From Ignavibacteria bacterium (GTDB lineage: Bacteria > Bacteroidota > Ignavibacteria > UBA10030), in assembly GCA_016873805.1 (NCBI GenBank), contig VGVZ01000014.1, positions 8,522 to 72,521 on the forward strand: a stretch of 64,000 bases of DNA, read 5' to 3'. The position numbers were made by a program, and so were the translations under genes. Every line of letters starts with the position of its first letter. Position 1 is the stretch's first letter. The notes beneath the pieces are model-generated. The model saw only the letters and a list, made by a program, of their open reading frames with translations, did not search any database and was not told the origin of the DNA. This document shows, one piece after another, positions 5,209 to 59,281 of this stretch.

Positions 5209-6885
5209 ATGGCGACCATCACGATAAACGGAACCGAATTCCAGGTCGATGCAAAGTCGACGATCATTGAAGCAGCACGAGCGAATGGAATTCACATTCC
5301 GCATTTCTGCTGGCATCCGAAGCTTTCCGTGTCTGGCAACTGCCGCATGTGCCTCGTGGAAGTGGAACAAATGCCGAAGCTTTTGATTGCCTGTGCAACT
5401 CAGGTCGCGGACGGCATGGTTGTCAAAACGAAAAGCGAACGCGTCATCCAGGCGCAGAAGGCGGTGATGGAGTTCTTGCTGATCAACCATCCCCTGGACT
5501 GTCCGATTTGCGACGAGGCGGGGGAATGTAAGCTTCAGGAATACGCGTATCAATACAGCGTTGGATACAGTCGCTTCGAAGAGGACAAAGTTCACAAACC
5601 GAAGCGCGTTCCGCTGGGACCAAATGTCATGCTTGATGTCGAGCGTTGCATCATGTGTTCGCGCTGCATACGATTTTCCGAGGAAATTGCGAAGCAACCT
5701 GTTCTTACCTTCACGCAACGCGGTACTCACGTCGTACTTACCACCTTTCCCGGAAGCGAGCTCGACAATCCCTATTCGATGAACGTCATCGAATTGTGTC
5801 CTGTCGGCGCTCTCACAAGCCGGGATTTTCGATTCAAGGCGCGGGTGTGGGAGATGGCAGCAACCGAAAGCGTCTGCAACGGTTGTGCGCGCGGCTGTAA
5901 CATGAACATCTGGACTCGCAACAATGAGATTCTCCGGCTCACGCCGCGGCAGAACGAAGAGGTCAATTCCTCATGGATGTGCGACTACGGTCGGCTGGAG
6001 ACCTTCAAGCATGTGAACGCATCGGAACGGCTCAGTGGACCATCGGTCCGTGTCGACCGGGAACTCCGATCGATCGGATGGGAAGAGACCGTATCGGAAC
6101 TTGCGTCGGAACTTCGCGGCTTTCGGAAGAACGAGATTGCCGGGATCGGATCGGCATACGCCACCAACGAAGACAATTTTGTCTTCCAGCGTTTCATCAA
6201 AGAAGTCTTGGGCTCGAAGCACCTCGACCTTCTTCCGCATGTCATCGAACAGGTTGAAGACGACCTGCTGATCAAGGCCGATCGGACACCGAACAGCCTT
6301 GGCGCTCGGAATGTCGGAATCGAACCGTCGTCGGGAGGATTGTCCGCATCCGGAATCCGGAACGCGATCAACGACGGATCGATCAGGGCTCTATACGTTC
6401 TCGAAGATGATATCGCCGCGGATCCCGAATGGCATTCCGTTTTGCAGAAACTGAGACTTCTCGTTGTTCATTCCGCGGTTCAGAACGCCACAACCGCGCT
6501 CGCCCACGTAGTCCTTCCGGCTTCGACGTATGCGGAAAAACACGGGACGATCACGAATTTTCAGGGAAGGGTCCAGCGACTCCAACCCGCTGTCGCAACG
6601 AGCGAAACCGACCGGAGAATGGACGGACTTGCGGCAAGCCGCTGGGACAAGTTTTCATCGAAGAATGATCGGTGGGGAAGACCCGTGAAGTTTGACGCTC
6701 GCCCCAGCTGGAGAATCCTTGTCTCCGTGGCTGCTGCGCTCGGGACGAGAATGAAATACAATACTGCCGAAGATGTCTTTGGTGAAATTGCAAACGTCGT
6801 TCCGGTGTACCGAGGGATGAGCTTTGCAAGAATCGGTTCGAAGGGGGTGTTGTCCAAATCGTCCCCTGTTCCGGTAAAAACTTAG
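5209..6885 (+). CDS. nuoG: NADH-quinone oxidoreductase subunit G (short form: 2Fe-2S and 4Fe-4S N-terminal domains)
   Basis: CWHPKLSVSGNCRMCLVEV (2Fe-2S), HPLDCPICDEAGECKLQ and CIMCSRC...CPVGAL Fe-S motifs typical of the NuoG/75 kDa subunit. At 558 aa it is shorter than proteobacterial NuoG. Confidence 0.8.
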   Translation: MATITINGTEFQVDAKSTIIEAARANGIHIPHFCWHPKLSVSGNCRMCLVEVEQMPKLLIACATQVADGMVVKTKSERVIQAQKAVMEFLLINHPLDCPICDEAGECKLQEYAYQYSVGYSRFEEDKVHKPKRVPLGPNVMLDVERCIMCSRCIRFSEEIAKQPVLTFTQRGTHVVLTTFPGSELDNPYSMNVIELCPVGALTSRDFRFKARVWEMAATESVCNGCARGCNMNIWTRNNEILRLTPRQNEEVNSSWMCDYGRLETFKHVNASERLSGPSVRVDRELRSIGWEETVSELASELRGFRKNEIAGIGSAYATNEDNFVFQRFIKEVLGSKHLDLLPHVIEQVEDDLLIKADRTPNSLGARNVGIEPSSGGLSASGIRNAINDGSIRALYVLEDDIAADPEWHSVLQKLRLLVVHSAVQNATTALAHVVLPASTYAEKHGTITNFQGRVQRLQPAVATSETDRRMDGLAASRWDKFSSKNDRWGRPVKFDARPSWRILVSVAAALGTRMKYNTAEDVFGEIANVVPVYRGMSFARIGSKGVLSKSSPVPVKT

Positions 6886-6920
6886 ACCAGCCACGAATAC
6901 TTGAAATCGATGCTCTGATC

Positions 6921-7952
6921 ATGGACATCCTCATTGCTTCCACAAAAATCGCTGTTGTGCTTGCGGCAATGCTTACGTCGGTCGTGTTCCTCGTTCTTGT
7001 CGAACGACGCATGAGTGCCTTCATTCAGAATCGCATCGGCCCGAACAGAGTAGGACCGTACGGCTTGCTCCAATCGGTGGCCGATGTCGTGAAACTTCTG
7101 ATGAAGGAGGATATTGTGCCGGCAAAAGCGAACAAGCCGTTGCATGATCTGGCGCCCATCATCTCGATTGCCGTTGCGATGACAACCTTCGCCGTCATAC
7201 CGTTTGGAAATGCCATTGAGCTGTTCGGGACAACTATCAAGCTGCAAATCGCCGATGTGAACATCGGGATCCTTTACATCCTTGCGATCACATCGCTCGG
7301 CGTGTACGGACTCACGCTGGCGGGGTGGTCGTCGAACAACAAGTACTCGTTGCTCGGCGGGCTCCGTTCATCCGCACAAATGATCAGTTATGAGCTTTCG
7401 ATGGGACTTGCCATCATCGGCGTGATATTGATGGCGGGAACACTTCGGCTTGATGTCATTGTTGAGAAACAAACGGAGTATCTTTTGGGGTGGCTTCCGG
7501 CATGGAACATATTCCTTCAGCCTGTCGCGTTCATTACGTTTTTCATCGCCGCCTTTGCGGAGACAAACAGGCTCCCATTCGATTTGCCGGAGGCGGAGCC
7601 GGAACTCGTGGGAGGATTTCACACGGAATACACGGGTCTCAAGTTTGGGCTTTTCTTCCTTGCGGAATACATGAACATGATCACTGCCAGCGCGATCGTG
7701 GTGACATTGTTCCTCGGAGGCTGGCATCTGCCGTATGCAGATATGCTGGGGTTGTCCGGCTTCGCCCTGAGCATCCTGCAGGTTCTCACGTTCTGCGGCA
7801 AGATCGTGTTGGTTCTCCTGTTCTTCATTGCGATCCGGTGGACGTTGCCACGCTTCCGGTATGACCAATTGATGAGCCTTGGCTGGAAGGTGATGCTGCC
7901 GCTGACGCTTGCCAACGCGCTTGTAACGGCTCTGATTCTCCTCGCGTTCTGA
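6921..7952 (+). CDS. nuoH: NADH-quinone oxidoreductase subunit H
   Basis: Polytopic membrane protein with the NuoH/ND1 signature (RIGPNRVGPYGLLQSVAD, LAEYMNM). Confidence 0.9.
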   Translation: MDILIASTKIAVVLAAMLTSVVFLVLVERRMSAFIQNRIGPNRVGPYGLLQSVADVVKLLMKEDIVPAKANKPLHDLAPIISIAVAMTTFAVIPFGNAIELFGTTIKLQIADVNIGILYILAITSLGVYGLTLAGWSSNNKYSLLGGLRSSAQMISYELSMGLAIIGVILMAGTLRLDVIVEKQTEYLLGWLPAWNIFLQPVAFITFFIAAFAETNRLPFDLPEAEPELVGGFHTEYTGLKFGLFFLAEYMNMITASAIVVTLFLGGWHLPYADMLGLSGFALSILQVLTFCGKIVLVLLFFIAIRWTLPRFRYDQLMSLGWKVMLPLTLANALVTALILLAF

Positions 7953-8545: not shown

Positions 8546-10084
8546 ATGTTTTCGCAATTGCTCAGTTGCGCCACGTACGGCGTCGACGCGTATGTTGTCT
8601 CAGTCGAGACGCATATCGAGCCCGCCCTGTTTCGCTTTTCCATCGTCGGATTGCCGGACAATGCCGTTCGCGAAAGCAGTGAGCGGGTCATTGCGGCGAT
8701 CAGAAATTCCGGATATCCGTTCCCCTTCTTTCGCATCACCGTAAACCTTGCGCCTGCCGACGTGAAAAAAGAGGGATCGGCCTACGATCTGCCGATCGCG
8801 CTCGGGATTCTCGCGTCCAGCGGCACCATTCCGGGAGATTCGCTCTGCGATTATCTTCTCCTCGGTGAGCTGGCTCTCGATGGACGACTGCGTCCTATTC
8901 GCGGAGCGCTTGTCGTGGCGCTCGAAGCTCGGTCGCGAAATATCAGAGGAATCATACTGCCGCGTGAGAACGCGCGAGAGGCCGCTCTCGTCGAAGGAAT
9001 AGAAGTGTATCCGATGGAGAGCCTTCAGGAAACCGTCGATTTCCTGTCTGGTAGAGAGAAGAACCGAACTCCGTTTCGCGTCGATGCCAAGCAGGTCTTT
9101 TCAGACGAAATGGTGTATGCGATCGATTTCGCCGATGTAAAAGGGCAGGAGAGTGTCAAGCGATCGCTCGAAGTGGCGGCCGCGGGAGGCCATAACATTA
9201 TTCTGATCGGTCCGCCAGGATCGGGGAAGACTATGCTTGCAAAACGCCTCGCGACCATACTCCCTCCGCTCTCCTTTGAAGAGGCGCTTGAAACAACGAA
9301 AATACATTCCGTTGCCGGACTCCTTCCGACCCATTCCGCACTCGTCGCGACACGCCCGTTCCGGGCTCCTCATCACACGATCTCCGACTCTGCGCTTGTG
9401 GGCGGCGGAAGCATCCCGCGGCCCGGAGAGATTTCCCTTTCTCATAACGGAGTATTATTTCTCGATGAACTTCCCGAGTTCGCCAGGAACGTCCTGGAGG
9501 TGCTGCGTCAACCTCTTGAGGATGGTCGTGTGACGATCAGTCGATCGAAGATGTCAGTCGACTATCCGGCGAACTTCATGCTCGTCTGTGCCATGAACCC
9601 CTGTCCGTGCGGACATTACGGAAACCCCCAACAGTCGTGCAGCTGCACACCACTGCAGATCCAGAAATATGTCGGAAAGATCTCCGGACCCCTGCTCGAC
9701 CGCATTGATATTCACGTCGAAGTACCGGCTGTCAAATATCAGGAGCTTTCTTCGCGGAGGGATGGAGAGCTCTCCGAACGCATACGCGATCGAGTTATCC
9801 GTGCCAGGGAGATCCAGCGTCAACGGTTTGCTTCTCCCGGATTGTATTCGAACGCCGACATGGAGACGCGTGAGATTAAGGAAGTGTGCGTGCTCGATCT
9901 GCCAGGAGCAGAGTTGTTGAAGCTTGCCATGCAGCGTTTCGGACTCTCTGCGCGCGCATATGACAGAATTCTGAAGGTCGCGCGTACGATTGCCGATCTG
10001 GAGGGAGCCGAGAACATCCGGCCTGAACATCTCAGCGAAGCCATTCAGTATCGGAGCCTGGATCGGACCTTCTATGCTGTCTGA
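8546..10084 (+). CDS. comM: YifB/ComM-family Mg-chelatase-like AAA+ ATPase
   Basis: N-terminal Lon-like/ChlI domain, Walker A GPPGSGKT, arginine finger/sensor region, and a C-terminal ComM domain (NPCPCGHYG...). Confidence 0.9.
9590..10055 (+). repeat. Direct repeat copy 1: 3'-terminal ~465 bp of comM (the intact gene copy)
   Basis: Read directly: 9590-10055 matches 16822-17290 nearly base for base. Only two substitutions were noticed, including gtacgatt vs gcacgatt. Homology starts at gccATGAACCCCTGTCCG and decays in the last ~30 bp before the stop. Confidence 0.9.
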
Positions 10085-10116
10085 GAATCGGCCCTTATCT
10101 CTCGGACTCGTATGCT

Positions 10117-13100
10117 TTATTGTTTTGAGAATTTCAGAAACAGCGCTGGGATAACAATCATATTCAAGGCGGTCGAACTCAGGAGTCCTCCCAGGATCAC
10201 AATTGCCATCGGCGACTGAATTTCGTTTCCGGGTTCATGACCGGCAATTGCCAGAGGAATCAATGCGAGTCCCGCTGCGAGGGCGGTCATCAACACCGGA
10301 CTGAGCCTCTCCATTGATCCCTGGCGAATAGCCCCGACGAGCGACTTGCCTTCCGCAAGAAGCGTATTATAATGCGAAACCATCAGGATGCCGTTCCTCG
10401 TGGCGATTCCGAACAACGTGATGAATCCAACAAGCGATGCCACACTTATGACACCGCTCGAGAAGAATACGGCGCCAATTCCGCCAATTAACGCGAGAGG
10501 AAGATTCACCATAACGACCATGGCAGTTCGCATCGACTTGAATTCGATGTACAGCAGAAGGAAGATCGTGAAGATGGCAGCGATGCCCAGCAGGGATATG
10601 ACTCGCGTCGCCTCTTGCTCGCTCTCAAACTGGCCGCCGTATTCGATAAAATAGCCCTGAGGGAGCGTTACGTTCATCCCGATCCGCCGTTGGATGTCCC
10701 CGACTACACTCCTCAAATCACGATCCGAAACGTTTGACTGAACAACAATTTTCCGCTGGACATTCTCCCGGCTAATCGTATTGATCCCTTTTTCCGAAAC
10801 AATGGTCGCCAGTTCCTGGATGGGGACTTTGACGCCCAATGGGGTGTCGAACAGTGCCTGTCGGATCTTCTCTATGCTGCCGCGGTGATTCTCATTGAAT
10901 CGAACGAGAAGATCGAAACTTTGCTGCCCCTCGAGAACCTGTGAAACGACCTCGCCATTGAACGCCACATCGAGTGCCTCGGAAAAATCAGCCACGGTCA
11001 TTCCGTATCTTGCCATCTGAAGTCTGTTTGCTTTGATTCGGATTTGCGGAACGTTCATCTGTTGTTCAGTGGCCAAATCGACAATCCCTTCGACCTGTTC
11101 CATTTGCTTCCGAACTTCTTCGGCGATTGACCGCAAGCGGAACAAGTCGGGTCCAAAGATCTTGACTGCAATGTTGGCCCGGGTACCAGAAAGCATGTGA
11201 TCAATACGGTGTCCGAGGGGCTGGCCAATTGTGATATTGGTACCGGGCACAACGGAGAGCATCTTCCGGAGATCCGACAGCACCTGCTCCTTCGACATTC
11301 CGTTAAGCTCTAACCGGGCATCCAGCTCAGCAGAGTTGACGCCCTGGGCGTGCTCGTCCAGCTCGGCTCTCCCCGTGCGGCGGGCCGTAGAGACTATCGA
11401 TGGGTGACTCAGGAGAATCTTCTCGACGTGATTTCCGATCTTGTTGGATTCGTGGAGGGAGGTCCCTGGCATTGTAACAACGCTGATGGTTAGGGACCCT
11501 TCATTGAATTCGGGAAGGAAGGCACGGCCAAGAAACGGAACAATCGCGACGGCTGCAATCAGCGAGATTCCGGCGGATACAAGGACAAGTCCGGGTCTGC
11601 TGAAAACAATGTCGAGTGTCCGGGAGTAGACCGCCTTCAAACGCAAGACCAAGAAGCTGTCCTCTTTTCGCTCCAGGAATCCAGCACGGGGGAGCATGAA
11701 GGCGCACAATGCCGGTGTAACAGTCAGCGCGATGATAAGAGACGCGCCGATTGAAGCAATATAGGCGATGCCCAAAGGACGCAGCAAACGTCCTTCGACA
11801 CCGGTCAGGAAGAAAAGAGGCAGAAACACAGCAATGATAATCAACGTTGCATTGACAATCGAAGACCGGATCTCCCGCGATGCATCGTAAATGACATCAA
11901 AGGCGGGGCGTGGGTTCTGAGCATGCTTGTTTTCCTTCAACCGCCGGAACACGTTTTCCACATCAATAATGGCATCATCAACAATCGCACCGATGGCAAT
12001 TGCCATTCCCCCGAGTGTCATGGTATTGATAGTGATATCGAAAAGCTTCATCACAAACACGGCGAAGATGAGCGACAGCGGCATTGCTGTCAGCGAGATG
12101 AAGGTTGTTCGGGTGTTTGCGAGGAACAACACCAATACAACAATGACGAGTATGGCTCCATCCCTGAGGGCGGCGACAACGTTGTCTATGGCCACCTGAA
12201 TAAAGTCAGCCTGCCTGAAGATGTGCGAATTTATTGTCATTCCTTCCGGCAGGGTTTTCTGAATCTCATCGAGTGTCTGCTCTATTCGTCTTGTGAGTTC
12301 CAGGGTGTTGGCGCCCGGTTGCTTCTGAATGGAAATCACAACGGCAGGCTTGGCGTTAACCGAGGCATCCCCGATCTTTACTGCCGCATCTATCTCCACG
12401 TCCGCGATATCTCTGACAAGAATAGGAATACGGTTTCGGATGGCGACGACCGCGCCCCTGATATCGTCAGTTGAATACACACGGCCGAGGCCTCGTATGA
12501 GATACTCTTGCCCCTTTTCCATGAACACGCCGCCCGAGGAATTCTGATTCGATTCTTCAACGGCACGTAGAACTTCTTGAAGGGAGAGACGGTATGCACG
12601 GAGCCTGTCCGGGTCGACAAGAACCTGATATTGCTTCCGGCCTCCGCCGATGGGAATGACCTGAGAAACACCCGGAACCGCGAGAAGCCTCTTGCGAATC
12701 GTCCAATCTGCAATCGTGCGTACATCGAGCTCGCTGTGATGATCGCTGGAAAGGCTCACAAGCATGATTTCGCCCATGATGGATGAAATCGGTGCAAGCA
12801 CTGGTTGGGCAACGCCGCGCGGAAGCTGTGAGCTCACAAGTTGAAGTTTTTCGTTGACGATCTGGCGGGCGATGAAAATATCGGTTCCCCAATCGAACTC
12901 AACCCAGATAATGGAGATACCCATGGCTGACGATGAGCGCACACGTCGAACGCCAGTCGCCCCGTTGACCGCTGTTTCCACAGGGAACGTGACCATGGTT
13001 TCCACTTCCTCGGTCGCCATGCCATGGGCCTCTGTGAGGATAACCACGGTTGGCGCAGTAAGGTCGGGAAAAACATCAACCGGGATCTGGGTGACTGTCA

Positions 13101-13185
13101 ACGCTCCGATAATGGATAAAGCGCCGGCGCCAATCACGACGAGAAACTTGTTCTTAAGGGAAGCTTTGATAATTCTATCGAGCAT
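10117..13185 (-). CDS. czcA: Heavy-metal efflux RND transporter, CzcA/CusA family
   Basis: 1022 aa with 12-TM RND architecture. The N-terminus (MLDRIIKASLKNKFLVVIGAGALSIIG...) and overall layout match the HME-RND family. Confidence 0.85.
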   Translation of the reverse strand: MLDRIIKASLKNKFLVVIGAGALSIIGALTVTQIPVDVFPDLTAPTVVILTEAHGMATEEVETMVTFPVETAVNGATGVRRVRSSSAMGISIIWVEFDWGTDIFIARQIVNEKLQLVSSQLPRGVAQPVLAPISSIMGEIMLVSLSSDHHSELDVRTIADWTIRKRLLAVPGVSQVIPIGGGRKQYQVLVDPDRLRAYRLSLQEVLRAVEESNQNSSGGVFMEKGQEYLIRGLGRVYSTDDIRGAVVAIRNRIPILVRDIADVEIDAAVKIGDASVNAKPAVVISIQKQPGANTLELTRRIEQTLDEIQKTLPEGMTINSHIFRQADFIQVAIDNVVAALRDGAILVIVVLVLFLANTRTTFISLTAMPLSLIFAVFVMKLFDITINTMTLGGMAIAIGAIVDDAIIDVENVFRRLKENKHAQNPRPAFDVIYDASREIRSSIVNATLIIIAVFLPLFFLTGVEGRLLRPLGIAYIASIGASLIIALTVTPALCAFMLPRAGFLERKEDSFLVLRLKAVYSRTLDIVFSRPGLVLVSAGISLIAAVAIVPFLGRAFLPEFNEGSLTISVVTMPGTSLHESNKIGNHVEKILLSHPSIVSTARRTGRAELDEHAQGVNSAELDARLELNGMSKEQVLSDLRKMLSVVPGTNITIGQPLGHRIDHMLSGTRANIAVKIFGPDLFRLRSIAEEVRKQMEQVEGIVDLATEQQMNVPQIRIKANRLQMARYGMTVADFSEALDVAFNGEVVSQVLEGQQSFDLLVRFNENHRGSIEKIRQALFDTPLGVKVPIQELATIVSEKGINTISRENVQRKIVVQSNVSDRDLRSVVGDIQRRIGMNVTLPQGYFIEYGGQFESEQEATRVISLLGIAAIFTIFLLLYIEFKSMRTAMVVMVNLPLALIGGIGAVFFSSGVISVASLVGFITLFGIATRNGILMVSHYNTLLAEGKSLVGAIRQGSMERLSPVLMTALAAGLALIPLAIAGHEPGNEIQSPMAIVILGGLLSSTALNMIVIPALFLKFSKQ

Positions 13186-13195
13186 AGTTCAATTC

Positions 13196-14218
13196 CTAGT
13201 GCGAGTGTCGCTCAAGTCCGTCGTGCGTGTGTTCATGAATACGGTGATGCTCCTCGCCCGCCAAGTCTTCGGGATCAACATGAACGAGGACATCTCCAAG
13301 GTTTTCAAACTTGTGGAGTAGCTGATGGCGAACCTCGGTTGCGATTGCATGACCCTCGGTAACGGACAGATGTGAGTCCACGGCAACGTTAATTTCAACA
13401 CGCAGGCGGTGACCCAGCCATCGTGCCCTTGCTGCTCCAACAGATTTCACCCCTTTGATATGCTGCGTTGCATGGAGAATCTCGTCGAATAATCCCGTTT
13501 CGATTCCATCGAGCAAACGAGCAACAATGGACTTTCCAGATTCCCACACGATAAAGAGAATAGCAATGGTGATGCCGATCCCGACAAGAGGATCGGCAAG
13601 CGGAAAGCCGATCCAGACGCCAATTGCTCCGACGAGAACACTTAGACTCGTCCATCCGTCCACACGAGCGTGATAGCCATCGGCAACCAAAGCCGCACTT
13701 CCGATTTGTTTGCCAACCTTGATTCGAAACAAGGCAACGGCTTCGTTTCCGAGGAATCCGACCACAGAGGCCGCGATCACCGCCCACACATATGAGATCT
13801 CTGCTGGGTGAAAGAATCTGTCAACCGCTTCATAGCCCGCCACGAATGCACTAGCAAGGATTGTAAGGACAACGGCAACGTCTTCGACGCGGCCCCAGCC
13901 GTATGTGAACCTCTTGGTTGGCGTAAGCCGGGCAAACATGAAAGCCACCGCGAGCGGCACAGCGGTAAAAGCGTCACCGATGTTATGAATTGTGTCGGCA
14001 AGCAGGGCAACGCTGTTGGAGAGAACAACCACGGCAATTTGAAGAAACGCTGTCATCATCAGTCCGACGAAGGACCATTTTACGGCCCACACTCCACGCT
14101 TGGAAGTGGCCATCAAAGGATCAACGACGCCGTGCGTGTGAGCATGATGCCGGTGGTCCTGCGAATGGTCATTATTGCCTGCTGTACCCATGACAGATCC
14201 TTGATCTCTAATGCTCAT
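13196..14218 (-). CDS. Cation diffusion facilitator (CDF) family metal transporter, His-rich termini
   Basis: Six TM helices, a His-rich N-terminus (HSQDHRHHAHTHG) and C-terminus (EEHHRIHEHTHDGLERHSH), and CDF signature regions. Confidence 0.85.
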   Translation of the reverse strand: MSIRDQGSVMGTAGNNDHSQDHRHHAHTHGVVDPLMATSKRGVWAVKWSFVGLMMTAFLQIAVVVLSNSVALLADTIHNIGDAFTAVPLAVAFMFARLTPTKRFTYGWGRVEDVAVVLTILASAFVAGYEAVDRFFHPAEISYVWAVIAASVVGFLGNEAVALFRIKVGKQIGSAALVADGYHARVDGWTSLSVLVGAIGVWIGFPLADPLVGIGITIAILFIVWESGKSIVARLLDGIETGLFDEILHATQHIKGVKSVGAARARWLGHRLRVEINVAVDSHLSVTEGHAIATEVRHQLLHKFENLGDVLVHVDPEDLAGEEHHRIHEHTHDGLERHSH

Positions 14219-15794
14219 GCCCGTGTGCTGGAAGCTGCGAAGAAAGCGAAGCCAGCCGGACCTGGTACGCCCCGACCGTCACGACGCGCTCACCTTCTGC
14301 GAGTCCGCTCAGAATCCCCACATCCGTTCCGTTCCTCTCACCCAGGGTCACATCCCGTTTTACAAACGCTTCGCCTTCCACCTGTACATAGACGCTGTAG
14401 CGTCCCTCTTCTTCGACCAAGGCAGATTCAGAAACAACGAGCGCTCTTTTTTCGTCACCTACGGCAATGCTCACTTCACCAAACATGCCCACCCGCAGGC
14501 GCCCATCCGGGTTCCGGATTTCAAAGATAACGGGGAATGTTCGGGTCTCAGGATCTATGGCTGCGCCAACGGTGACGAGCTTGCCGTTTTCTTCGCTCAC
14601 CTCGAACTGTTCGATGCCCCCGGCGAATTGGATCCAGGCCTGCCTTGGACGGCTGAGTCTTCCAATTTCAGTTGATGCAACGTTTGCCCGCATCCAAAGC
14701 GAGCCTGTGTCAATGATGCGAAATAAGGGCTCACCGGCGTTCACCTGTTTCCCGGGCACGACATTCATCTCGACGATGGTTCCGGAGAGGGGAGTTCGGA
14801 GGGTGAATCCGCCAAACGATTGACTCTCATCATTTGAACCTGCAAACTTGCGCAGCGTTTGATAGGTCGCTTCGGCTCCTTTGAATTCAGCGTCTGCTTC
14901 CTGGTATTCTTTTTCCGAAATCAGGCCCGCAGCGTAGAGTTTCTTTGCGCGCTCGAATTCTTTGGCGGTAAGATCGCGGTCTGATTGCGCCTCGATGAAC
15001 CGTGAAGCGAAGTTTTCGACACCGCCGGGAGTTTCAGCTGAGGGGAGCATCAATGCGAGTGGATCGTCGCGGCGGACGTATTGTCCAATGGTCGGAAGGT
15101 TACGGTTCTCTTCCGACGGTATTGTGCCGGTAAATGGCGCCGGGACGATTGCCTCGTTGTTGAGCTTTGGAACGATCTCGCACGCAGCCCGGATCGTACC
15201 AGTCAAGCGCATCACTTCCGCCGCCTGTGTGCGGAAATCCGTGTTCCACTGCTGTTCTTTCAGGAATGTGATGACTTGTTCGCCCTGAGACGCTTCCTCA
15301 GATGGAATTTCCTCCAAAGCTGAAAATACCCGCAGTCCTTCAACGTACAGAGTGTCCGTCGAGCCACCGTCGATGATCATCATGAGTCGATAGATCCCCG
15401 GTTGACCAAACGTTACCGTGGGTCTGAAGATGCCGGGAGAGGTTGGCTCCTTTGCTGTCGCAGTGACTGTCGATCGGCCAGCCGACGTGAACAAAAGTGA
15501 TAGCGTCCCTTCCCTCACTGGCTTGAAATCGGACAACCAAGTCAAGTGAACTGCGAAGCGCTTCTCCTCACCAACGATAAGAGGGGGATACTCCATGAAG
15601 AGCTCCGATTTATCTGTCCAGAGTGTTATCGATCCGCCGCCCTGGGCACCCGAATTCCTCGCCTCATCCGTGCGGGTGCAACCAAGCAGAGCAAGAGCGG
15701 TGATGGTGCAAATAGCAAAATGCATTACTTTCATAGTGAAAGTCCTTCGTGAACCCAAAAGAGATTTGAGTCGGCTCAAAATGGAATGAATCAC
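14208..15794 (-). CDS. Efflux RND periplasmic adaptor (CzcB/HlyD-like) with ~150 aa N-terminal extra domain and His-rich C-terminal tail
   Basis: Lipoprotein-like signal (LLGCTR). Central coiled-coil plus beta-barrel adaptor region (TPLSGTIVEMNVVPGKQV). C-terminus ends in PAHGHEH. The N-terminal ~150 aa segment looks like an extra Ig/YtkA-like metal-binding domain. Confidence 0.7.
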   Translation of the reverse strand: MIHSILSRLKSLLGSRRTFTMKVMHFAICTITALALLGCTRTDEARNSGAQGGGSITLWTDKSELFMEYPPLIVGEEKRFAVHLTWLSDFKPVREGTLSLLFTSAGRSTVTATAKEPTSPGIFRPTVTFGQPGIYRLMMIIDGGSTDTLYVEGLRVFSALEEIPSEEASQGEQVITFLKEQQWNTDFRTQAAEVMRLTGTIRAACEIVPKLNNEAIVPAPFTGTIPSEENRNLPTIGQYVRRDDPLALMLPSAETPGGVENFASRFIEAQSDRDLTAKEFERAKKLYAAGLISEKEYQEADAEFKGAEATYQTLRKFAGSNDESQSFGGFTLRTPLSGTIVEMNVVPGKQVNAGEPLFRIIDTGSLWMRANVASTEIGRLSRPRQAWIQFAGGIEQFEVSEENGKLVTVGAAIDPETRTFPVIFEIRNPDGRLRVGMFGEVSIAVGDEKRALVVSESALVEEEGRYSVYVQVEGEAFVKRDVTLGERNGTDVGILSGLAEGERVVTVGAYQVRLASLSSQLPAHGHEH

Positions 15795-15834
15795 CCGCGT
15801 CAGCAGAGTGACCCGGCGAATTGAGGGATAATTC

Positions 15835-16284
15835 CTAAGAAACAGCGGGCGGAGAGCGACCTGAGTCCGGGTGGTCTGCCCGTGCGAGAAGCGGAGGCGG
15901 GAACTCCCAGGGTAATGCGAACAGGAATGAAATCGAGAGATTTGAAAACGCCGGTTTCGTCAAGTCGACGGGAACGGTGATGAAACCGTGAATCAAATGC
16001 CCCGCCCGCAACGTCGGAGCAGGAAGAGCGATGAGTCGAACAATAGGGACTGCGTGATCATGGACCCGATCGGCAAGCACTGCACGGGTGTGACTGAAAG
16101 CAACAACCTCATCCGGATGCACATGCGCTGTCCATGAATGCGAATGGAGATTTTCGCCTTCGTGTTTGTGATTCAGCGATTCATGAAAGTGCAAACCGTC
16201 CCCCAATATCAGTCCAATTGCATAAGAGAAAACGATGGCTGACAGAGGGACAAAATGCAACGATATTCGGCGTATTGGTGACAT
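15835..16284 (-). CDS. Hypothetical small His-rich protein (possible metal-binding accessory)
   Basis: The ORF alone. His-rich stretch HFHESLNHKHEGENLHSHSWTAHVHPDE and hydrophobic segments; no recognisable family. Confidence 0.35.
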   Translation of the reverse strand: MSPIRRISLHFVPLSAIVFSYAIGLILGDGLHFHESLNHKHEGENLHSHSWTAHVHPDEVVAFSHTRAVLADRVHDHAVPIVRLIALPAPTLRAGHLIHGFITVPVDLTKPAFSNLSISFLFALPWEFPPPLLARADHPDSGRSPPAVS

Positions 16285-16336
16285 TGTCGACGTTGTTCAA
16301 TGTAGAGAATTCCGCTTCTAACTGCACGACAAATTT

Positions 16337-16732
16337 TCATGGGGCCAACTTTTTCTGAATGAGAGCTTCGCCACTAAGACTGTGCGGATGTCCCTCGTCC
16401 AAAGCCTGACTGTTGAAAAAAGCGATCAGTTTCTTGCCAACTGCACGGGAACACATCCCGTGGTTCCTCTCCAACCTGCTCAACGTCCCCGGATCTATCC
16501 CGATCTGTCGGGCAAGCTCCTTCTGCGTCATTCCTTGATCCCGCCGGTATTTCAATAGCTTCTCTCCCAACGTCTTCGGCTCATTTGGGGCAAGATCATA
16601 ACCAAGGAATTCTCGGATTGCCGGTTGATATCTGAGTGTCGGCTTCGATCTGTTCCACTCCCAGTTGCGGATCGTGTCAACCTCGACTCCAAGACGGTCG
16701 GCAAGCTGGCTCTGGGTCATCTCAAGCTCCAT
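16337..16732 (-). CDS. XRE-family transcriptional regulator with two tandem HTH_XRE domains
   Basis: Two HTH motifs: MTQSQLADRLGVEVDTIRNWE and MTQKELARQIGIDPGTLSRLE. Start placed at MELEM (16732). The ORF-track start at 16885 extends into the comM-repeat antisense sequence and is probably not coding. Confidence 0.6.
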   Translation of the reverse strand: MELEMTQSQLADRLGVEVDTIRNWEWNRSKPTLRYQPAIREFLGYDLAPNEPKTLGEKLLKYRRDQGMTQKELARQIGIDPGTLSRLERNHGMCSRAVGKKLIAFFNSQALDEGHPHSLSGEALIQKKLAP

Positions 16733-16821
16733 TCTCCGCTTCCGAATGTGGTCCCCGATGGTGTTCAGAACAGTGGGCAGTTTCGTAAGTTTTTGGGCTG
16801 TTAAGCGGATTTGACAGAAAG

Positions 16822-17290
16822 GCCATGAACCCCTGTCCGTGCGGACATTACGGAAACCCCCAACAGTCGTGCAGCTGCACACCACTGCAGATCCAGAAAT
16901 ATGTCGGAAAGATCTCCGGACCCCTGCTCGACCGCATTGATATTCACGTCGAAGTACCGGCTGTCAAATATCAGGAGCTTTCTTCGCGGAGGGATGGAGA
17001 GCTCTCCGAACGCATACGCGATCGAGTTATCCGTGCCAGGGAGATCCAGCGTCAACGGTTTGCTTCTCCCGGATTGTATTCGAACGCCGACATGGAGACG
17101 CGTGAGATTAAGGAAGTGTGCGTGCTCGATCTGCCAGGAGCAGAGTTGTTGAAGCTTGCCATGCAGCGTTTCGGACTCTCTGCGCGCGCATATGACAGAA
17201 TTCTGAAGGTCGCGCGCACGATTGCCGATCTGGAGGGAGCCGAGAACATCCGGCCTGAACATCTCAGCGAAGCCATTCAGTATCGGAGCC
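16822..17290 (+). repeat. Direct repeat copy 2: duplicated 3' end of comM
   Basis: Near-identical to 9590-10055 (see copy 1). Confidence 0.9.
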
Positions 17291-17319
17291 TGGACCGAAG
17301 TTTCTACGGCATTGTCTGA
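16825..17319 (+). pseudogene. comM: Truncated comM 3' fragment (C-terminal 164 codons, no N-terminal ATPase domain)
   Basis: Translation ([16 protein letters not shown]...LDRSFYGIV) is identical to the ComM C-terminus apart from the last few residues. It lacks the Walker A/ATPase portion. Confidence 0.8.
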
Positions 17320-17416
17320 AGAACCGATCTCGTCTTCAACACCCGCTTTCTTGTAACTCCATCACGCATTGTGTATATTCATCACACCGCCACTCATTTT
17401 GTCCACGTGGTCTCGC

Positions 17417-18427
17417 ATGAAGATTGGCAGCATCAATATCGATCGCCCCGTTGTCCTTGCTCCTATGGAGGATGTGACAGACCGTTCGTTCCGATTGATC
17501 TGCAAGCGACTCGGGGCTGATATGTTGTACACAGAGTTTGTGAACGCCGAGGGGTTGGTTCGCCAGTCCGATAAAACCCGCCGCAAAATGCTTTTCGACG
17601 ATGACGAACGTCCTTTCGGGATTCAGCTCTATGGCGGAGTCGATACGTCGATGGAGGGAGCCGCTCGGATGGCCGAAGAGCTTCATCCTGACCTCATCGA
17701 TATCAATTGCGGTTGCTGGGTGAAGAATGTCGCGATGCGGGGCGCCGGTGCCGGCTTACTGAGAGATCTGCCGCGATTGGAACAGCTCGTCTCAACTGTC
17801 GTGAAAAGCGTTTCCCTACCCGTCACTGTGAAGACTCGGCTCGGATGGGATGCCGAAAGCATTAAGATCGTCGAGGTCGCAAAGATGCTTGAACAGACAG
17901 GCATCAGGGGACTGACGATTCATTGCCGCACGCGCGCACAAGGCCACAAGGGTGAACCCGATTTCAGCTGGATTCCCGAGATCAAGCGCCATGTCTCAAT
18001 TCCGATTATTGCCAACGGTAGCCTGGAGACACCCGAACAAATTCAAAGGGTGTTCAGTGAAACCGGCTGTGACGGTGTCATGATCGGTCGAGCCGCGATC
18101 GACAATCCCTGGATATTCGAGCAAACCAAGATGTACCGTGCAACGGGATCATATGCCCCGGTATCTGTCGATCAACGGATCGAACTAATGCTGACGCACT
18201 TGGGTCTCGCCGTTCAGCACAAAGGAGAGCGAAAAGGTATCATCGAGTTTCGCAAGCACTACAGCGGGTATCTCAAGGGGATACCCAATTCCGCAAGTCT
18301 CCGCTCCGAGTTGATGCAATATACGTTGCACACGCCAATCGTCGAAAAGATCCAGCGGTTCCACGAGCGGCTCGCATCTGATTGCTCTGCCCCTCCGATG
18401 GTCCGACCAGTGAATGAAAATGGATAA
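17417..18427 (+). CDS. dusB: tRNA-dihydrouridine synthase
   Basis: Dus-family TIM-barrel motifs (LAPMEDVTDRSFR, GIQLYGG, DINCGC, IANGSL). Start taken at the internal ATG 17417 (MKIGS). Confidence 0.85.
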   Translation: MKIGSINIDRPVVLAPMEDVTDRSFRLICKRLGADMLYTEFVNAEGLVRQSDKTRRKMLFDDDERPFGIQLYGGVDTSMEGAARMAEELHPDLIDINCGCWVKNVAMRGAGAGLLRDLPRLEQLVSTVVKSVSLPVTVKTRLGWDAESIKIVEVAKMLEQTGIRGLTIHCRTRAQGHKGEPDFSWIPEIKRHVSIPIIANGSLETPEQIQRVFSETGCDGVMIGRAAIDNPWIFEQTKMYRATGSYAPVSVDQRIELMLTHLGLAVQHKGERKGIIEFRKHYSGYLKGIPNSASLRSELMQYTLHTPIVEKIQRFHERLASDCSAPPMVRPVNENG

Positions 18428-31139: not shown

Positions 31140-31499
31140 GGGGGTGACACGGCTTCGACGGGGATGAGGAAGCTCAGAACTGCATACCGTGGTCTCCGGG
31201 TCCACGTTAAACAATCGGTAAACCCTTAAGTGCCGACTACAACTACGCACTGGCTGCTTAATTAACTTAAGCAACCCGTTCTCTCGATCTCTCGCCCGTT
31301 GGGGATCTTGAGAACGTCGCTCAGATGGGCTAGTTCTCCATTGTTCTCAGGGATGGAGGACGAATCCGCCGCAAGCGGAACACCCTGAGATAGTGTGCGG
31401 TCAATCCAGCGTGCCGGAGTTTCCGCACATGAACCCAAAGGGCTCGCTACGTATGGAGACGTTCTGAGGGTCTTCTCTTCGGACCGGGGTTCGACTCCC
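31140..31499 (+). ncRNA. ssrA: tmRNA (SsrA); tag reading frame 31232-31261 encodes ADYNYALAA*
   Basis: 5' GGGGGTGACACGGCTTCGACGGGG (tRNA-like domain, G3 pairs with U giving the Ala identity pair). Tag ORF GCCGACTACAACTACGCACTGGCTGCTTAA. 3' T-arm GGACCGGGGTTCGACTCCCCG plus acceptor CACCTCC-A. Followed by a hairpin terminator. Confidence 0.8.
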
Positions 31500-31503
31500 C
31501 GCA

Positions 31504-31536
31504 CCTCCACTGCAAGCCCTCATCAGACCGATGAGG
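31504..31536 (+). terminator. Intrinsic terminator after ssrA
   Basis: AGCCCTCATC-agaccg-GATGAGGGCT followed by TTTT. Confidence 0.7.
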
Positions 31537-31570: not shown

Positions 31571-32263
31571 ATGACATCAACCATTCTCATCATCGACGAT
31601 GAACCTGACATTCGAGAGCTGCTCAAGTACAATCTCGAACGCGAAGGGTACAACGTCCTCACCGCCAGAGACGGCCGGGAGGGAATGGAGAAGATCAACT
31701 CATCGGTCCGCCTTGTAATCCTCGACATCATGATGCCGAAAATGGACGGATGGGAAGTCTTCCGCCAGCTCCGGAAGAATCCCAAGACCCGCGATATTCC
31801 TGTTATCTTTCTCACCGCTCGCGATAGCGAAATCGACGAGGTCGTCGGTCTCGAGATTGGCGCCGATGATTTTCTCACCAAGCCCGTAAAAATCCGGACA
31901 TTGCTGGCCCGCGTCCGGAAAACCCTTCAACGCCGGATCGATCATGTATCCGCTCGAAGTATCGATACGGTAATTTCCCTTGGTGCGCTCGACGTGTTTC
32001 CGCAGAATTACACCATCGCCCTCGAGGCAAAGACCGTCTCTCTTCCAAAAAAAGAATTTGAAGTGCTGCTCTTTCTGGTCCGGCACGCCGATCATGTCGT
32101 CACCAGAGAGGAGCTTCTGAACAACGTGTGGGGGCGCGATATCGTTGTCGTCGATCGGACGGTGGACGTGCACGTGAGAAAGATCCGTGAAAAGCTCGGG
32201 CGACATGCATCGATGATCGAGACGGTCAAAGGAGTCGGCTATCGGCTCAGGGGATCGGCGTGA
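31571..32263 (+). CDS. OmpR-family response regulator (PhoB/PhoP-like)
   Basis: Receiver domain (IIDDEPDIRELL, D52-like, K) and winged-helix trans_reg_C. Sits upstream of the kinase and pst genes. Confidence 0.85.
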   Translation: MTSTILIIDDEPDIRELLKYNLEREGYNVLTARDGREGMEKINSSVRLVILDIMMPKMDGWEVFRQLRKNPKTRDIPVIFLTARDSEIDEVVGLEIGADDFLTKPVKIRTLLARVRKTLQRRIDHVSARSIDTVISLGALDVFPQNYTIALEAKTVSLPKKEFEVLLFLVRHADHVVTREELLNNVWGRDIVVVDRTVDVHVRKIREKLGRHASMIETVKGVGYRLRGSA

Positions 32264-33714
32264 TGCCTTCGATCCGGACAAGAATCAGTTTCACCTATCT
32301 CCTCATTGCGGCCATTGTGCTCGTGTTGCTGGGGACCCTTCTCAGCCTCGAATTTGAGCGTTCCCTGCGCGAGAGAATCGTTGCGGAACTCAAAACGACT
32401 TCTCTTGTGGTTCACTCATTTCTTCTCGAAACCGCTCCCAAACGGGCCTGGATGCAGGAAACGCGAAAGACCCTCGAGATTATCGCATCCACGACGTCAA
32501 TCCGGATCACACTCATCGATGGGGAGGGGACTGTCCTTTTCGAATCGGCCGTACCCGATTCCATGAAGCATCTCCTCGCCAATCATCTTCAGCGGCCGGA
32601 AGTCCAACGCGCCTTGAAAAGGGGAGAGGGAACAGATGTCAGGATGAGCGAGACTATTGGCCTTGAGATGATGTACCACGCCCATCGCGTCGACCCCGTG
32701 CAATTTGAGCAGTCGATCTTTCCTCGATTGCGGTTCATCCGGTCCGGGATTCCGCTGAGCGAGGTGAACAGTCACATCGCAACGATTCGTCTCAAGATCA
32801 CAATCGCCGCGTTTCTCGTTTTTCTGGTGACACTTGTCGCCAGTCGCATCGTTGCCCGAAGAGTGACCGATCCTATTGCAAAGATGTCCGCAGATGTCGC
32901 CAGGATCAAGGCAGGAGAGATCGACATTCGACTTCCCATCCAATCTGACGATGAGATCGCCAAGCTGGCGGAGCTCATCAACGAAATGACGACCAAGTTG
33001 CGCGACGATATTGCTCAGTTGCGCAAGCTCGAACGCTACCGGACCGAATTTCTCGGTAACGTCTCGCACGAACTTCGAACGCCGATCTTTTCCCTCAAAG
33101 GCTATCTGGAGACGCTGCTTGATGGAGCCATCGACGACTCCACCGTCCGCCGATCGTTCCTCGAGAAGGCCTACCATCACGCCTCGAGGCTTGATACCTT
33201 GCTCAACGACCTGATCGAAATTTCTCGGATCGAATCGGGACAGATGAAGTTCAGCTTCCGATTCTTCGAGGTGCAGCCCTTCTTGAAAGAAGTCATTGCC
33301 GATCATCAGCACGCCAGCCAGCGCAAGAGCCAGGACCTTCGGTGCGAGCTGCCGGACGAAGCTCCCCTTGTGTATGGCGACCGCGACCGCCTGCGGCAGG
33401 CGCTCGGCAACATCATCGACAATGCTATCAGATACAGCCCGGAGGGTGCCTCGATTGTCGTCAATGCGGGTCGATCTGATGACACCTTGGTGATCTCGGT
33501 GCACGACAGCGGTCCGGGCATCGATCCAATCCATCTTTCGCGAATCTTCGAACGTTTTTATCGGATCGACCAAGATCGTTCGCGTGAGGCAGGGGGGACA
33601 GGCCTCGGACTGGCCATCTCCAAACACATCGTCGAAGCTCATGGTCAGAAAATCGTTGTGGAGAGTACTCCCGGCTCCGGGTCGACTTTTTCCTTTCACC
33701 TTCGCACATCGTAA
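32260..33714 (+). CDS. Sensor histidine kinase (PhoR-like)
   Basis: TM/HAMP region, H-box SHELRTP, and N/G1/G2 boxes (DNAIRYS, DSGPGI, GGTGLGL). Confidence 0.85.
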   Translation: MMPSIRTRISFTYLLIAAIVLVLLGTLLSLEFERSLRERIVAELKTTSLVVHSFLLETAPKRAWMQETRKTLEIIASTTSIRITLIDGEGTVLFESAVPDSMKHLLANHLQRPEVQRALKRGEGTDVRMSETIGLEMMYHAHRVDPVQFEQSIFPRLRFIRSGIPLSEVNSHIATIRLKITIAAFLVFLVTLVASRIVARRVTDPIAKMSADVARIKAGEIDIRLPIQSDDEIAKLAELINEMTTKLRDDIAQLRKLERYRTEFLGNVSHELRTPIFSLKGYLETLLDGAIDDSTVRRSFLEKAYHHASRLDTLLNDLIEISRIESGQMKFSFRFFEVQPFLKEVIADHQHASQRKSQDLRCELPDEAPLVYGDRDRLRQALGNIIDNAIRYSPEGASIVVNAGRSDDTLVISVHDSGPGIDPIHLSRIFERFYRIDQDRSREAGGTGLGLAISKHIVEAHGQKIVVESTPGSGSTFSFHLRTS

Positions 33715-57094: not shown

Positions 57095-57171
57095 GGGGTC
57101 GTAGTTCAGTTTGGTTAGAACGCCTGCCTGTCACGCAGGAGGTCGCGGGTTCGAGTCCCGTCGGCCCCGCA
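57095..57171 (+). tRNA. tRNA-Asp (anticodon GTC)
   Basis: Cloverleaf read by eye: acceptor GGGGTCG/CGGCCCC, D-arm GTTC..GAAC, anticodon stem CCTGC/GCAGG with loop CTGTCAC, T-arm GCGGG-TTCGAGT-CCCGT. Confidence 0.9.
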
Positions 57172-57209
57172 AAAGCAAAAATGCCCCTCGCGGGCATTTT
57201 TGCTTTTGC
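57169..57209 (+). terminator. Intrinsic terminator after tRNA-Asp (first copy of a repeated block)
   Basis: Perfect palindrome GCAAAAGCAAAAATGCCC-ctcgc-GGGCATTTTTGCTTTTGC. Confidence 0.7.
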
Positions 57210-57299
57210 CATTGATGATGCGGCTGTGTCCCGCTCGCTTTTTGAGCGGGGTCGGCCCTCGCAGAAAGAACTTCTTTCACAGGAAGCCTTTTTTTTGTT

Positions 57300-57566
57300 G
57301 TGGCACACTGGGTTTACATCATCCAAAGTGAGGCTGATGGAACGTATTATGTAGGTTCAACGGAAAACGTTTCCGCTCGTTTGGAGCAACACAATCTTGG
57401 CTGGACACGCTCAACGAAAGCGATGCGCCCGTGGAAGGTCGTCCATATCCAAGAGTGTCAGACGAAAACTGAAGCGATGAAACGTGAACGACAGATCAAA
57501 CAAATGAAGAGCCGTGTCTATATCCAGCGGCTCATTCTGGGCGCAGGAGGTCGTCCCGATCCGTAG
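57300..57566 (+). CDS. Small GIY-YIG nuclease-family protein (YhbQ/UPF0213-like), GTG start
   Basis: WVYIIQSEADGTYYVGSTENVSARLEQHN is the GIY...YIG...R...E...N motif. The ORF's last codons and TAG stop lie inside the tRNA-like fragment at 57543-57591. Confidence 0.65.
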   Translation: MAHWVYIIQSEADGTYYVGSTENVSARLEQHNLGWTRSTKAMRPWKVVHIQECQTKTEAMKRERQIKQMKSRVYIQRLILGAGGRPDP

Positions 57567-57591
57567 GATCGGGAAGTCCCGTCGGCCCCGC
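57543..57591 (+). pseudogene. tRNA-Asp 3' fragment with the T-arm replaced by a 9 bp perfect hairpin (TCCCGATCC-gtag-GGATCGGGA), followed by a terminator copy
   Basis: GCAGGAGGTCG[TCCCGATCCGTAGGATCGGGAAG]TCCCGTCGGCCCCGC compared with intact GCAGGAGGTCG[CGGGTTCGAG]TCCCGTCGGCCCCGC. Confidence 0.7.
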
Positions 57592-57705
57592 AAAAGCAAA
57601 AATGCCCCTCGCGGGCATTTTTGCTTTTGCCATTGACGATGCGGCTGTGTCTCGCCTGTCCCGCCAGAAAGCGGCGGGATCAATTTGGTTCTTTGCAGGA
57701 CAATC

Positions 57706-57746
57706 GGGGTCGTAGTTCAGTTTGGCTAGAACGCCTGCCTGTCACG
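57706..57746 (+). pseudogene. tRNA-Asp 5' fragment (positions 1 to ~39, through the anticodon loop) directly upstream of the integrase
   Basis: GGGGTCGTAGTTCAGTTTGGCTAGAACGCCTGCCTGTCACG, then unrelated sequence. Confidence 0.7.
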
Positions 57747-57881
57747 AGTATTTCTCCACGGTTTCTTCTTCATTTCTGATTTGTTTTCCGCACAGCGCCC
57801 TTCAAGCACCTTTCACGTCTTCTGACACTTTCCAGCCTTAGAGCTCTCAGCATCACTCATCTGCCACTTTTTGGAGGAGTT

Positions 57882-58883: not shown

Positions 58884-58961
58884 TTGTTCAACGTCTCTTC
58901 GAGGCGGGTGGGCGTGGGCAGATCCCTGGAGAAAGGAGGCGAGGCATGTCGAAGGTGAACA

Positions 58962-59279
58962 CTAATGTGGCGTTTCTGTCTTGTACTCTCTTTGACGTAG
59001 TCGGGATCGGATAATATCATTAAGGAGAGCGCGATCGAATTCCTGAATATTGTCGACATCGATCTTCTTGGTCAATTCACCCCTGGAGTACTCTAACGCC
59101 AATTGACCGAAAATCTCATCAAAAAAGGATACCGAGGCGACCAACACATTTCCGAAGTCGATCCTTATGGTGTCAACTTTGTTCCACTGGTCAATGATCA
59201 GGTCGTGAACTACTTTCCCGTCGTCTCGAGTGACGATGTTTTTGCCACACGTTTCAATTATGTTGATCATGTATTCCAT
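58962..59279 (-). CDS. Small STAS-like (DUF4325-like) protein, putative partner of the adjacent GHKL ATPase
   Basis: 105 aa. IRIDFGNVLVASVSFFDEIFGQL resembles the DFSGV..ISSSFLDEL core of STAS/anti-sigma-antagonist-like domains. Family assignment is from memory only. Confidence 0.4.
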   Translation of the reverse strand: MEYMINIIETCGKNIVTRDDGKVVHDLIIDQWNKVDTIRIDFGNVLVASVSFFDEIFGQLALEYSRGELTKKIDVDNIQEFDRALLNDIIRSRLRQREYKTETPH

Positions 59280-59281
59280 AC

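Follow-up and report, generated by a model that had tools for sequence, protein, structure and literature searches.

The window analyzed here is a stretch of 64,000 nucleotides from an Ignavibacteria metagenome-assembled genome (MAG) (GenBank assembly GCA_016873805.1, contig VGVZ01000014.1, positions 8,522 to 72,521), whose source is the JGI metagenome contig Ga0194126_10000478 (67 kb, sample 3300020603). In this window, a heavy-metal efflux island lies between an intact comM (yifB) gene and a second copy of the comM 3′ end. The surroundings of the locus are housekeeping genes: nuoG-nuoH-nuoI lie upstream, and dusB, polX, nth, and the gene of an HD protein lie downstream. The features of the locus are the following (window positions; RND, resistance-nodulation-division; ORF, open reading frame; HTH, helix-turn-helix).

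8546..10084, plus strand: intact comM/yifB, 512 aa (Pfam ChlI, Mg_chelatase, and Mg_chelatase_C; TIGR00368 647 bits, cut-off 362)
9590..10062, plus strand: direct repeat copy 1, ComM codons 349-506, beginning at the sensor-1 motif AMNPCPCG (1 mismatch in 473 bp to copy 2)
10063..10084, plus strand: tail A, ...DRTFYAV*, the comM end that came with the island (not orthologous to the empty-site relative L165)
10117..13185, minus strand: czcA/cusA-type heavy-metal RND permease, 1022 aa (PF00873 2e-278; TIGR00914 831 bits, cut-off 701)
13196..14218, minus strand: cation diffusion facilitator (CDF) transporter (PF01545 and PF16916; TIGR01297 203 bits, cut-off 82)
14208..15794, minus strand: czcB-like periplasmic adaptor, a membrane fusion protein (HlyD_D23, HlyD_3; TIGR01730 149 bits, cut-off 95)
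15835..16284, minus strand: His-rich ORF, 149 aa, with an N-terminal hydrophobic segment (no Pfam or NCBIfam match)
16337..16833, minus strand: XRE-family gene with two HTH_3 domains (PF01381 5e-20, 2 stretches; homologue alignment)
16795..16845, no strand: region of the island/native junction 16821|16822 at ComM codon 349 (junction alignments)
16822..17294, plus strand: direct repeat copy 2, displaced native comM 3′ fragment (Pfam Mg_chelatase positions 156-206 and Mg_chelatase_C)
17295..17319, plus strand: tail B, ...DRSFYGIV*, the native comM end (aligns with the L165 comM-dusB spacer)
17369..18427, plus strand: dusB, the native downstream neighbor of comM (PF01207 2e-85)

I compared the repeat copies without gaps at an offset of 7232. 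It was found that 9590-10062 and 16822-17294 are direct repeats of 473 bp with only one mismatch, T at 9985 against C at 17217, which is a synonymous third-position difference (CGT/CGC). The left edge of the repeat is sharp, with unlike bases at 9589 and 16821. At the right edge, the homology continues with divergence and indels through the last seven or so codons and the stop codon. The intact comM gene is a hybrid of native sequence up to position 10062 and a foreign tail of seven codons. Its Walker A and Walker B motifs lie at residues 222-229 and 305-312 (the latter at nucleotides 9458-9481). The original prediction, made from the letters of the window alone, had placed near-identical repeats at 9590-10055 and 16822-17290 with about two mismatches; its coordinates are correct within a few bases, and the count is one. 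It had also described the second copy as a 3′-only comM fragment. This agrees with Pfam, by which copy 2 corresponds to ComM residues 349 to the end, and the gene caller gives it as a separate ORF of 164 aa. The five minus-strand genes (RND pump, CDF, adaptor, His-rich ORF, and XRE) are also those named in the prediction; the Pfam and NCBIfam scans gave no family for the His-rich ORF and found no recombinase domain in any of the five.

Is the second copy real? An assembler might have threaded one path through an empty-site chromosome and another molecule with the same 473 bp, either a 7.2-kb circle or the DNA of a second strain. The contig comes from a short-read metagenome, a near-exact repeat of 473 bp exceeds typical reads, and the assembly graph would give just this path. 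However, the 164-aa fragment ORF is recorded on six contigs with identical neighbors, which counts against a one-off mis-join, and the ComM sequence is present on three contigs including an NCBI MAG. Moreover, the same architecture was found in many loci whose comM copies are 15-28% divergent and hence not collapsible, and no full-length ComM with tail B clusters with P0001 (a cluster of one member). An artefact is thus very unlikely.

Which of the two comM ends is native? The closest ComM found (P0002, 86% identity) is encoded on a contig designated here L165; other loci are named by similar handles. This contig was reached by a protein search and a contig look-up, instead of the comM search of genomes, in which the best match was only 68% identical. 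The gene order on L165 is nuoG-nuoH-nuoI-comM-dusB-polX-nth-HD, which is the synteny of the window minus the island. The comM-dusB synteny was also found in L185 and L186. Relative to this empty site, the size of the insertion in the window is 7232 bp. An alignment with the comM-dusB spacer of L165 was obtained for tail B and the DNA following it, but not for tail A and the next 32 nucleotides. The C-terminus of P0002 (...NFYGIV) is like tail B, and the closest relatives end with FYGIV, FYGLG, or FYGLT. Ends of the FYAV type, resembling tail A, are the commonest among the more distant Ignavibacteria ComMs. Thus, the native end is the one adjoining dusB, and the tail on the intact gene came with the island. 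These comparisons support the view that a 7.2-kb element was inserted in comM, rebuilt the gene, and left the native 3′ end downstream. An element inserting into the 3′ end of a gene and reconstituting it had been proposed from the window, together with a look for relatives in which comM is directly followed by dusB; the L165 site and the orthology of tail B bear this out.

I then asked whether the arrangement is found elsewhere. An alignment of XRE homologues was used to scan public metagenome contigs, and 80 loci with 83 XRE copies were collected. A comM fragment lies immediately beside the XRE gene in 42 of the 80 loci (46 of the 83 copies), and its match to the window ComM begins at residue 349. 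The two are divergent in orientation, with 0-3 nucleotides between them. The XRE proteins are only 35-60% identical between loci, and yet the position of the junction is constant. The arrangement was also found on NCBI MAG contigs (L083 of Ignavibacteriales and L185 of Bacteroidota). When 1.84 billion cluster representatives were searched with a profile, 186 proteins were found at E <= 1e-30, many of which have a (V/P/A)AL-PFC signature. On the other hand, neither the XRE gene nor a second comM fragment was found in any of 80 comM loci of other bacterial species (54-68% ComM identity). Thus, the family is lineage-restricted rather than universal.

In several loci, the units are stacked. Tandem units of comM 3′ end, cargo, and XRE, each 3-10 kb in length, were found in L085, L119, L132, L150, L148, and L185. 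L127 is probably tandem too, one of its two bounding fragments being a remnant of 39 codons. In five of these loci (L085, L119, L132, L150, and L185), the arrays consist of recombinase-less cassettes with unrelated cargo, as in integrons. Judged from these alignments, the window island is one cassette of a widespread family that stacks in tandem at one codon of comM. The family is apparently undescribed: in the literature searched, the coverage of which is incomplete, no description of the XRE|comM cassette arrangement was found, and comM targeting gave only Tn6022 and Tsy.

Some loci deviate from this organization. In L125 (10001-18262), genes clustering with the window nuoG and with its neighbor were found on the right side of the XRE gene, and the comM 5′ part that would separate them from XRE is missing. 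The XRE gene of L110 lies beside nuo-like genes, and there is no comM remnant. It seems that some arrays such as these have lost or rearranged the comM 5′ part. L148 (13730-15753) has an intact comM opposite in orientation to the two comM 3′ fragments of the locus, followed by an XRE-like gene on the same strand. This comM may result from an inversion between repeat copies or may be a second comM paralogue.

The junction region was compared among the loci. The consensus in the sense of the XRE gene is CAGGGTTGCGTTGCC(A/T)TT(T/C)TGC, also given as CAGGGTTGCGTTGCC(A/T)TTTTGC and as CAGGGTTGCGTTGCCATTTTGC, and the window has a host-type version, CAGGGGTTCATGGCCTTTCTGTC. This motif is the best conserved DNA of the region. 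In the loci having no comM match by tblastn, about 20 nucleotides upstream of XRE keep the motif, and the next 50-100 nucleotides or so are a decayed, frameshifted remnant of comM. In 117 of the 120 homologues compared, the intact ComM reads AMNPCxCG at residues 349-356. In contrast, the fragments on the XRE side mostly begin with GCAACGC..., encoding A-T-(Q/H/R/K)-x-C, which is not a functional sensor-1 motif. Such starts were seen even where the native dusB-polX genes follow the fragment (L096 and L099/L100). Read on the opposite strand, the GCAACGC bases give the XRE N-terminal codons (M)-V-A-L-P. Thus, these bases travel with the XRE gene, and the true comM homology starts from around codon 352-353. 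The N-terminus common to all the XRE homologues, (M/L)PFC-x-[IVL]-x-L-[TS]A-x-K, begins at the junction, and the family-typical (M)VAL-PFC... of the window XRE also lies there.

The start codon of the XRE gene in the family is TTG, or ATG opposite CCATGT of comM. A sub-clade comprising the window, L083, L085b-L087, L090/91, and L093 has a host-like junction, GC(A/G/C)ATGAAC, in which GCA keeps the TTG start. Codon 349 is GCC in both window copies and in L165, and this makes the XRE start position TGG (16819-16833, minus strand). Thus, the window XRE lacks the usual start due to a single base, GCC instead of GCA. The remaining in-frame starts are GTG at 16885, inside the antisense of comM, and ATG at 16732, the one chosen by the gene caller, which cuts into the first HTH domain. 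The window XRE regulator may be inactive or N-terminally altered. As for DNA structure, RNAalifold predicted 0 conserved pairs, and hence no attC-like fold, in 29 junction windows. A palindromic 11-6-11 arrangement was not recognized by eye in the junction consensus, for which no formal dif model was run.

The cargo of the family is diverse. It includes proteins with a type IX secretion system (T9SS) tail, Ser/Thr kinases, an AraC regulator with dehydrogenases, sets of TonB receptors and periplasmic-binding proteins, a carbon monoxide dehydrogenase cluster, histidine kinases, DNA methylases, and a TrwB/HerA-like ATPase with RuvC and HTH_36 proteins. When the ORFs of 82 loci were clustered all against all, XRE, in 80 loci, and ComM, in 37 loci, were the only ones recurring widely. 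Among the larger ORFs scanned in the bounded units, no recombinase was found and all were cargo. As for Pfam families of recombinases or transposases, none has two or more members in either half of a set of 286 representative ORFs (175-600 aa), and no Phage_integrase or Tn7 family was found among these 286 ORFs of the family loci.

The only recombinase seen is a large serine recombinase of 563 aa in L187 (NCBI MAG contig JBBEEC010000033; features 5829-7520 and 9690-15893). It lies 12 kb from the XRE end of a cassette of at least 20 kb that ends in XRE|comM 3′. It is not a family feature. L187 also has a conserved module of HTH_3, HTH_36, a 162-aa ORF, RuvC, a 220-aa ORF, and a TrwB/HerA-like ATPase of 1011 aa. 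The ATPase recurs in L103, L111, L112, L141, L144, and L156. In L189, the module is found again in full, with neither XRE nor comM nearby. The module could be an autonomous element that is nested in cassettes or acts as their master.

Is the window island a remnant, then? It might descend from an integrase-bearing island that lost its integrase, or the 473-bp repeat might have arisen in situ by unequal crossing-over. The serine recombinase of the related large cassette L187 and the missing canonical start of the window XRE, which looks like decay, would fit a remnant. However, the bounded cassettes of 3-10 kb normally have no recombinase. Since the recombinase-less structure is seen throughout the family, it is likely to be a family property and not decay of the window copy. 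The same junction is found in loci with XREs of 35-60% identity, hence it is no random end-point of a deletion, and a local duplication would not yield the foreign tail A. For these reasons, an origin as a remnant or a local duplication is highly improbable. Of the three explanations that the original prediction offered for the missing integrase, the decayed island is therefore the least likely, while mobilization in trans is still a candidate, and so is RecA-mediated recombination between the repeats. A join of XRE and comM at random by homology-facilitated illegitimate recombination was also considered and was dropped, because the same join is present in dozens of divergent loci.

The cargo of the window island itself is a metal-efflux operon. 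It has the pair of a CusA/CzcA-family RND permease and a membrane fusion protein that characterizes CzcCBA-type systems. No gene of a CzcC/TolC-family outer-membrane factor was found in the island; the CDF and His-rich ORFs are in the operon instead. The 149-aa His-rich protein may assist the efflux system as a metal-binding protein of the periplasm. Candidate promoters and terminators in the island are no more numerous than in shuffled sequence. A plasmid origin of the island was rejected, since only matches of 60-70% to the czcA and CDF genes were found and none to the XRE gene or the junction. Carriage of the cassettes by phages or viruses was also rejected, as viral contigs gave only generic single-HTH matches.

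Elsewhere in the window (57095-60735), there is what looks like a separate conventional integrative element at a tRNA-Asp gene (57095-57170). Its 333-aa tyrosine integrase (57882-58883; Phage_integrase 2.7e-35) is the only integrase in the window. The integrase gene is flanked by partial copies of tRNA-Asp at 57706-57746 (98%) and 60583-60623 (78%), and a 114-nucleotide repeat is present three times near it (57121-57234, 57542-57655, and 60622-60735). A role of this integrase as a trans-acting enzyme for the comM cassettes is unsupported, because its attachment (att) repeats are tRNA-Asp fragments with a 6-nucleotide chance match to the comM core. The window also has a transfer-messenger RNA (tmRNA) gene at 31140-31510, with the tag GKPLSADYNYALAA, and a two-component system directly after it (31571-33714).

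How do the comM 3′ copies within one array differ? Their DNA identity is 72-85%, and their ORFs are uninterrupted. The ratio of nonsynonymous to synonymous substitution rates (dN/dS) is 0.03-0.08, with dS saturated above 1; the copies have been under purifying selection. Thus, they have diverged as functional gene ends and did not originate by local duplication and neutral drift. Such low ratios are as expected if each cassette spends time at the first position of an array, where it ends a comM gene. In L085 and L119, the longest identical run between neighboring copies (72-75% identity) is only 15-16 nucleotides. In L148, L150, and L185, identical patches of 50-107 nucleotides were found between copies. 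From these patches, it is evident that homologous exchange between copies does occur.

These data bear on a cycle depending on RecA only. In such a cycle, a circle of comM 3′ end, cargo, and XRE would be integrated and excised by a single Campbell-type crossover within 0.5 kb of homology, and the junction would be inherited from a founding event. The 473-bp identity in the window, together with element-specific extremities (tail A here and the ATQ-type start elsewhere), fits repeated crossovers inside the homology block especially well, and the cycle is also supported by the mosaic patches and the lack of a linked recombinase. A published study reports that ComM promotes branch migration in natural transformation (PMC12012524), and the cassette keeps ComM intact. 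However, insertion would be very inefficient between sequences like the neighbors in L085 and L119, with 72-75% identity, runs of up to 16 nucleotides, and dS above 1. Neither does this cycle give a reason for the universal retention of XRE at the cassette end, and it leaves unexplained a junction motif of about 20 nucleotides that outlives the comM remnant. I consider it less likely than the account below, although several observations fit it.

At a probability of roughly 55%, I favor a site-specific capture by an enzyme acting in trans, after which gene conversion would have taken place in this genome. By this account, cassettes lacking an integrase would be inserted in comM at the sensor-1 codons 349-353 (AMNPC). 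Each cassette consists of a complete replacement comM 3′ end (from around codon 349 to the stop codon), cargo, and at its other end a dual-HTH XRE gene whose first codons overlap the junction. Insertion would join the 5′ part of the host comM to the comM 3′ end of the cassette, and ComM would stay functional. The native 3′ end would be pushed downstream and come to lie beside XRE, and repeated insertion would build tandem arrays. Recombination would take place at the short XRE|comM junction and be catalyzed by a recombinase encoded elsewhere, with the XRE protein possibly serving as a DNA-binding accessory. What suggests site-specific joining is that the junction is constant, that the motif outlives the comM remnant, that the identical runs in L085 and L119 are of 15-16 nucleotides, and that a DNA-binding gene is always kept at the cassette end. 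After the insertion in the window, the 0.5-kb copies would have been homogenized by gene conversion up to the divergent tails. The same conversion may have set codon 349 on the XRE side to the GCC of the host and thereby removed the TTG start.

Several points weigh against this account. No recombinase for the cassettes was identified, and the exact crossover point is not mappable. The window copies are of the host type over all 473 bp, and a simple site-specific event needs a later conversion step to explain this. The motif overlaps the start and N-terminal codons of XRE, so its conservation could be a constraint on the protein or its translation. As to circular cassettes, no terminal overlap was found in 24 short XRE contigs, although this is a weak test. 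The identical patches in the arrays of L148, L150, and L185 tell against it as well.

A broader proposal can be made only tentatively, at somewhat less than an even chance. There may be an undescribed integron-like system in comM of Ignavibacteria and related uncultured bacteria, in which cassettes of 3 to more than 20 kb, with a working comM 3′ end and a dual-HTH XRE gene whose start codon lies antisense to the sensor-1 codons of comM, are captured serially at the junction of about 20 nucleotides by a recombinase encoded elsewhere, in the host or in a master element, with XRE as the recognition or activation factor. For the window itself, the meaning is more modest. The island appears to be settled, as its repeats are homogenized and the XRE start is lost. 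From what is established for RecA substrates, the 473-bp repeats should allow RecA-dependent loss of the island, restoring the native gene, under either of the two accounts. Probably, the metal-resistance island has become fixed or can be removed by RecA alone.

If the family works in the way proposed, comM would be a second platform of cassette accumulation besides integrons, located inside a housekeeping gene needed for natural transformation. It would move whole operons for metal efflux, TonB-dependent uptake, kinases, secreted proteins, and defense. It would explain how accessory genes are spread in uncultured Ignavibacteria and related bacteria with no integrase in sight, and it shows that an island may lack an integrase without being decayed. 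As a simple sequence signature, the conserved XRE|comM junction allows such cassettes to be found in metagenomes, and the junction motif with a candidate recombinase might be tried as a new site-specific insertion system.

The outcome of the insertion is known from other elements. The elements e14 and phage 21 (in icd), SGI1 (in trmE), and GIsul2 (in guaA) are integrated toward the 3′ end of a protein-coding gene and bring a substitute end with them. They encode their own tyrosine integrase beside the att site and duplicate only a short identical core. Like these, the comM cassette leaves its target gene intact (a 512-aa ComM with three Pfam domains and the foreign tail A), has the displaced native 3′ fragment at its far end as a direct repeat, and has an empty site in a relative, L165. 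Unlike these, the comM cassettes have no recombinase, the repeat here is 473 bp, and the cassettes form multi-cassette arrays.

Transposons are also known to target comM. Tn6022/AbaR, with TnsF, and Tsy, with a tyrosine recombinase (YRec), an HTH protein, and TnsF, are directed to the Walker B motif, leave comM in two parts, and have machinery of their own (PMC10293859). The small HTH protein of Tsy is needed for its transposition (PMC10293859). What the comM cassettes have in common with them is comM as a conserved, species-spanning landing site and, in the case of Tsy, a small HTH gene. In contrast, the cassette site lies 37 codons past Walker B, comM is reconstituted, and there is no TnsABC, TnsF, or YRec. 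Thus, the parallel with the islands in Acinetobacter comM, drawn in the original prediction, holds for the shared target gene but is otherwise superficial, comM being intact here and the site lying elsewhere.

Tandem islands separated by direct repeats of the 3′ end of one conserved gene have been described as the ssrA-specific islands of Dehalococcoides (PMC3146451). The comM arrays resemble them in both the tandem islands and the target-gene repeats between them. In contrast, the Dehalococcoides islands reportedly each encode a site-specific recombinase and have short repeats and an RNA-gene target.

Elements lacking a recombinase of their own are known as well. The integrative mobile elements exploiting Xer (IMEX), such as CTX, TLC with its HTH activator XafT, and the gonococcal island, as well as the pdif modules, exploit the Xer recombinases of the host. 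The comM cassettes share with IMEX the lack of an own recombinase and the tandem arrays, and one IMEX uses a small HTH activator. Reliance on a host enzyme is an IMEX feature. On the other hand, the site is in comM and not dif, and no dif-like 28-bp site was recognized. The window XRE gave only a sub-threshold, generic HTH match to XafT (NF040522, 23 bits against a cut-off of 70).

Integron cassettes are similar in that they are recombinase-less, have diverse cargo, are arranged in tandem at a fixed site, and each have one conserved recombination-end module. They differ from the comM cassettes in the attC fold, to which nothing alike was found here, and in the integrase beside the array head, where the window has the nuo genes upstream of comM. 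Moreover, the comM cassettes carry whole operons with a regulator and a gene fragment, and their site is inside a housekeeping gene. Thus, the nearest analogues of the comM cassettes are the 3′-end-replacing elements with regard to the outcome of insertion, and the integron arrays and Xer-dependent IMEX arrays with regard to organization.

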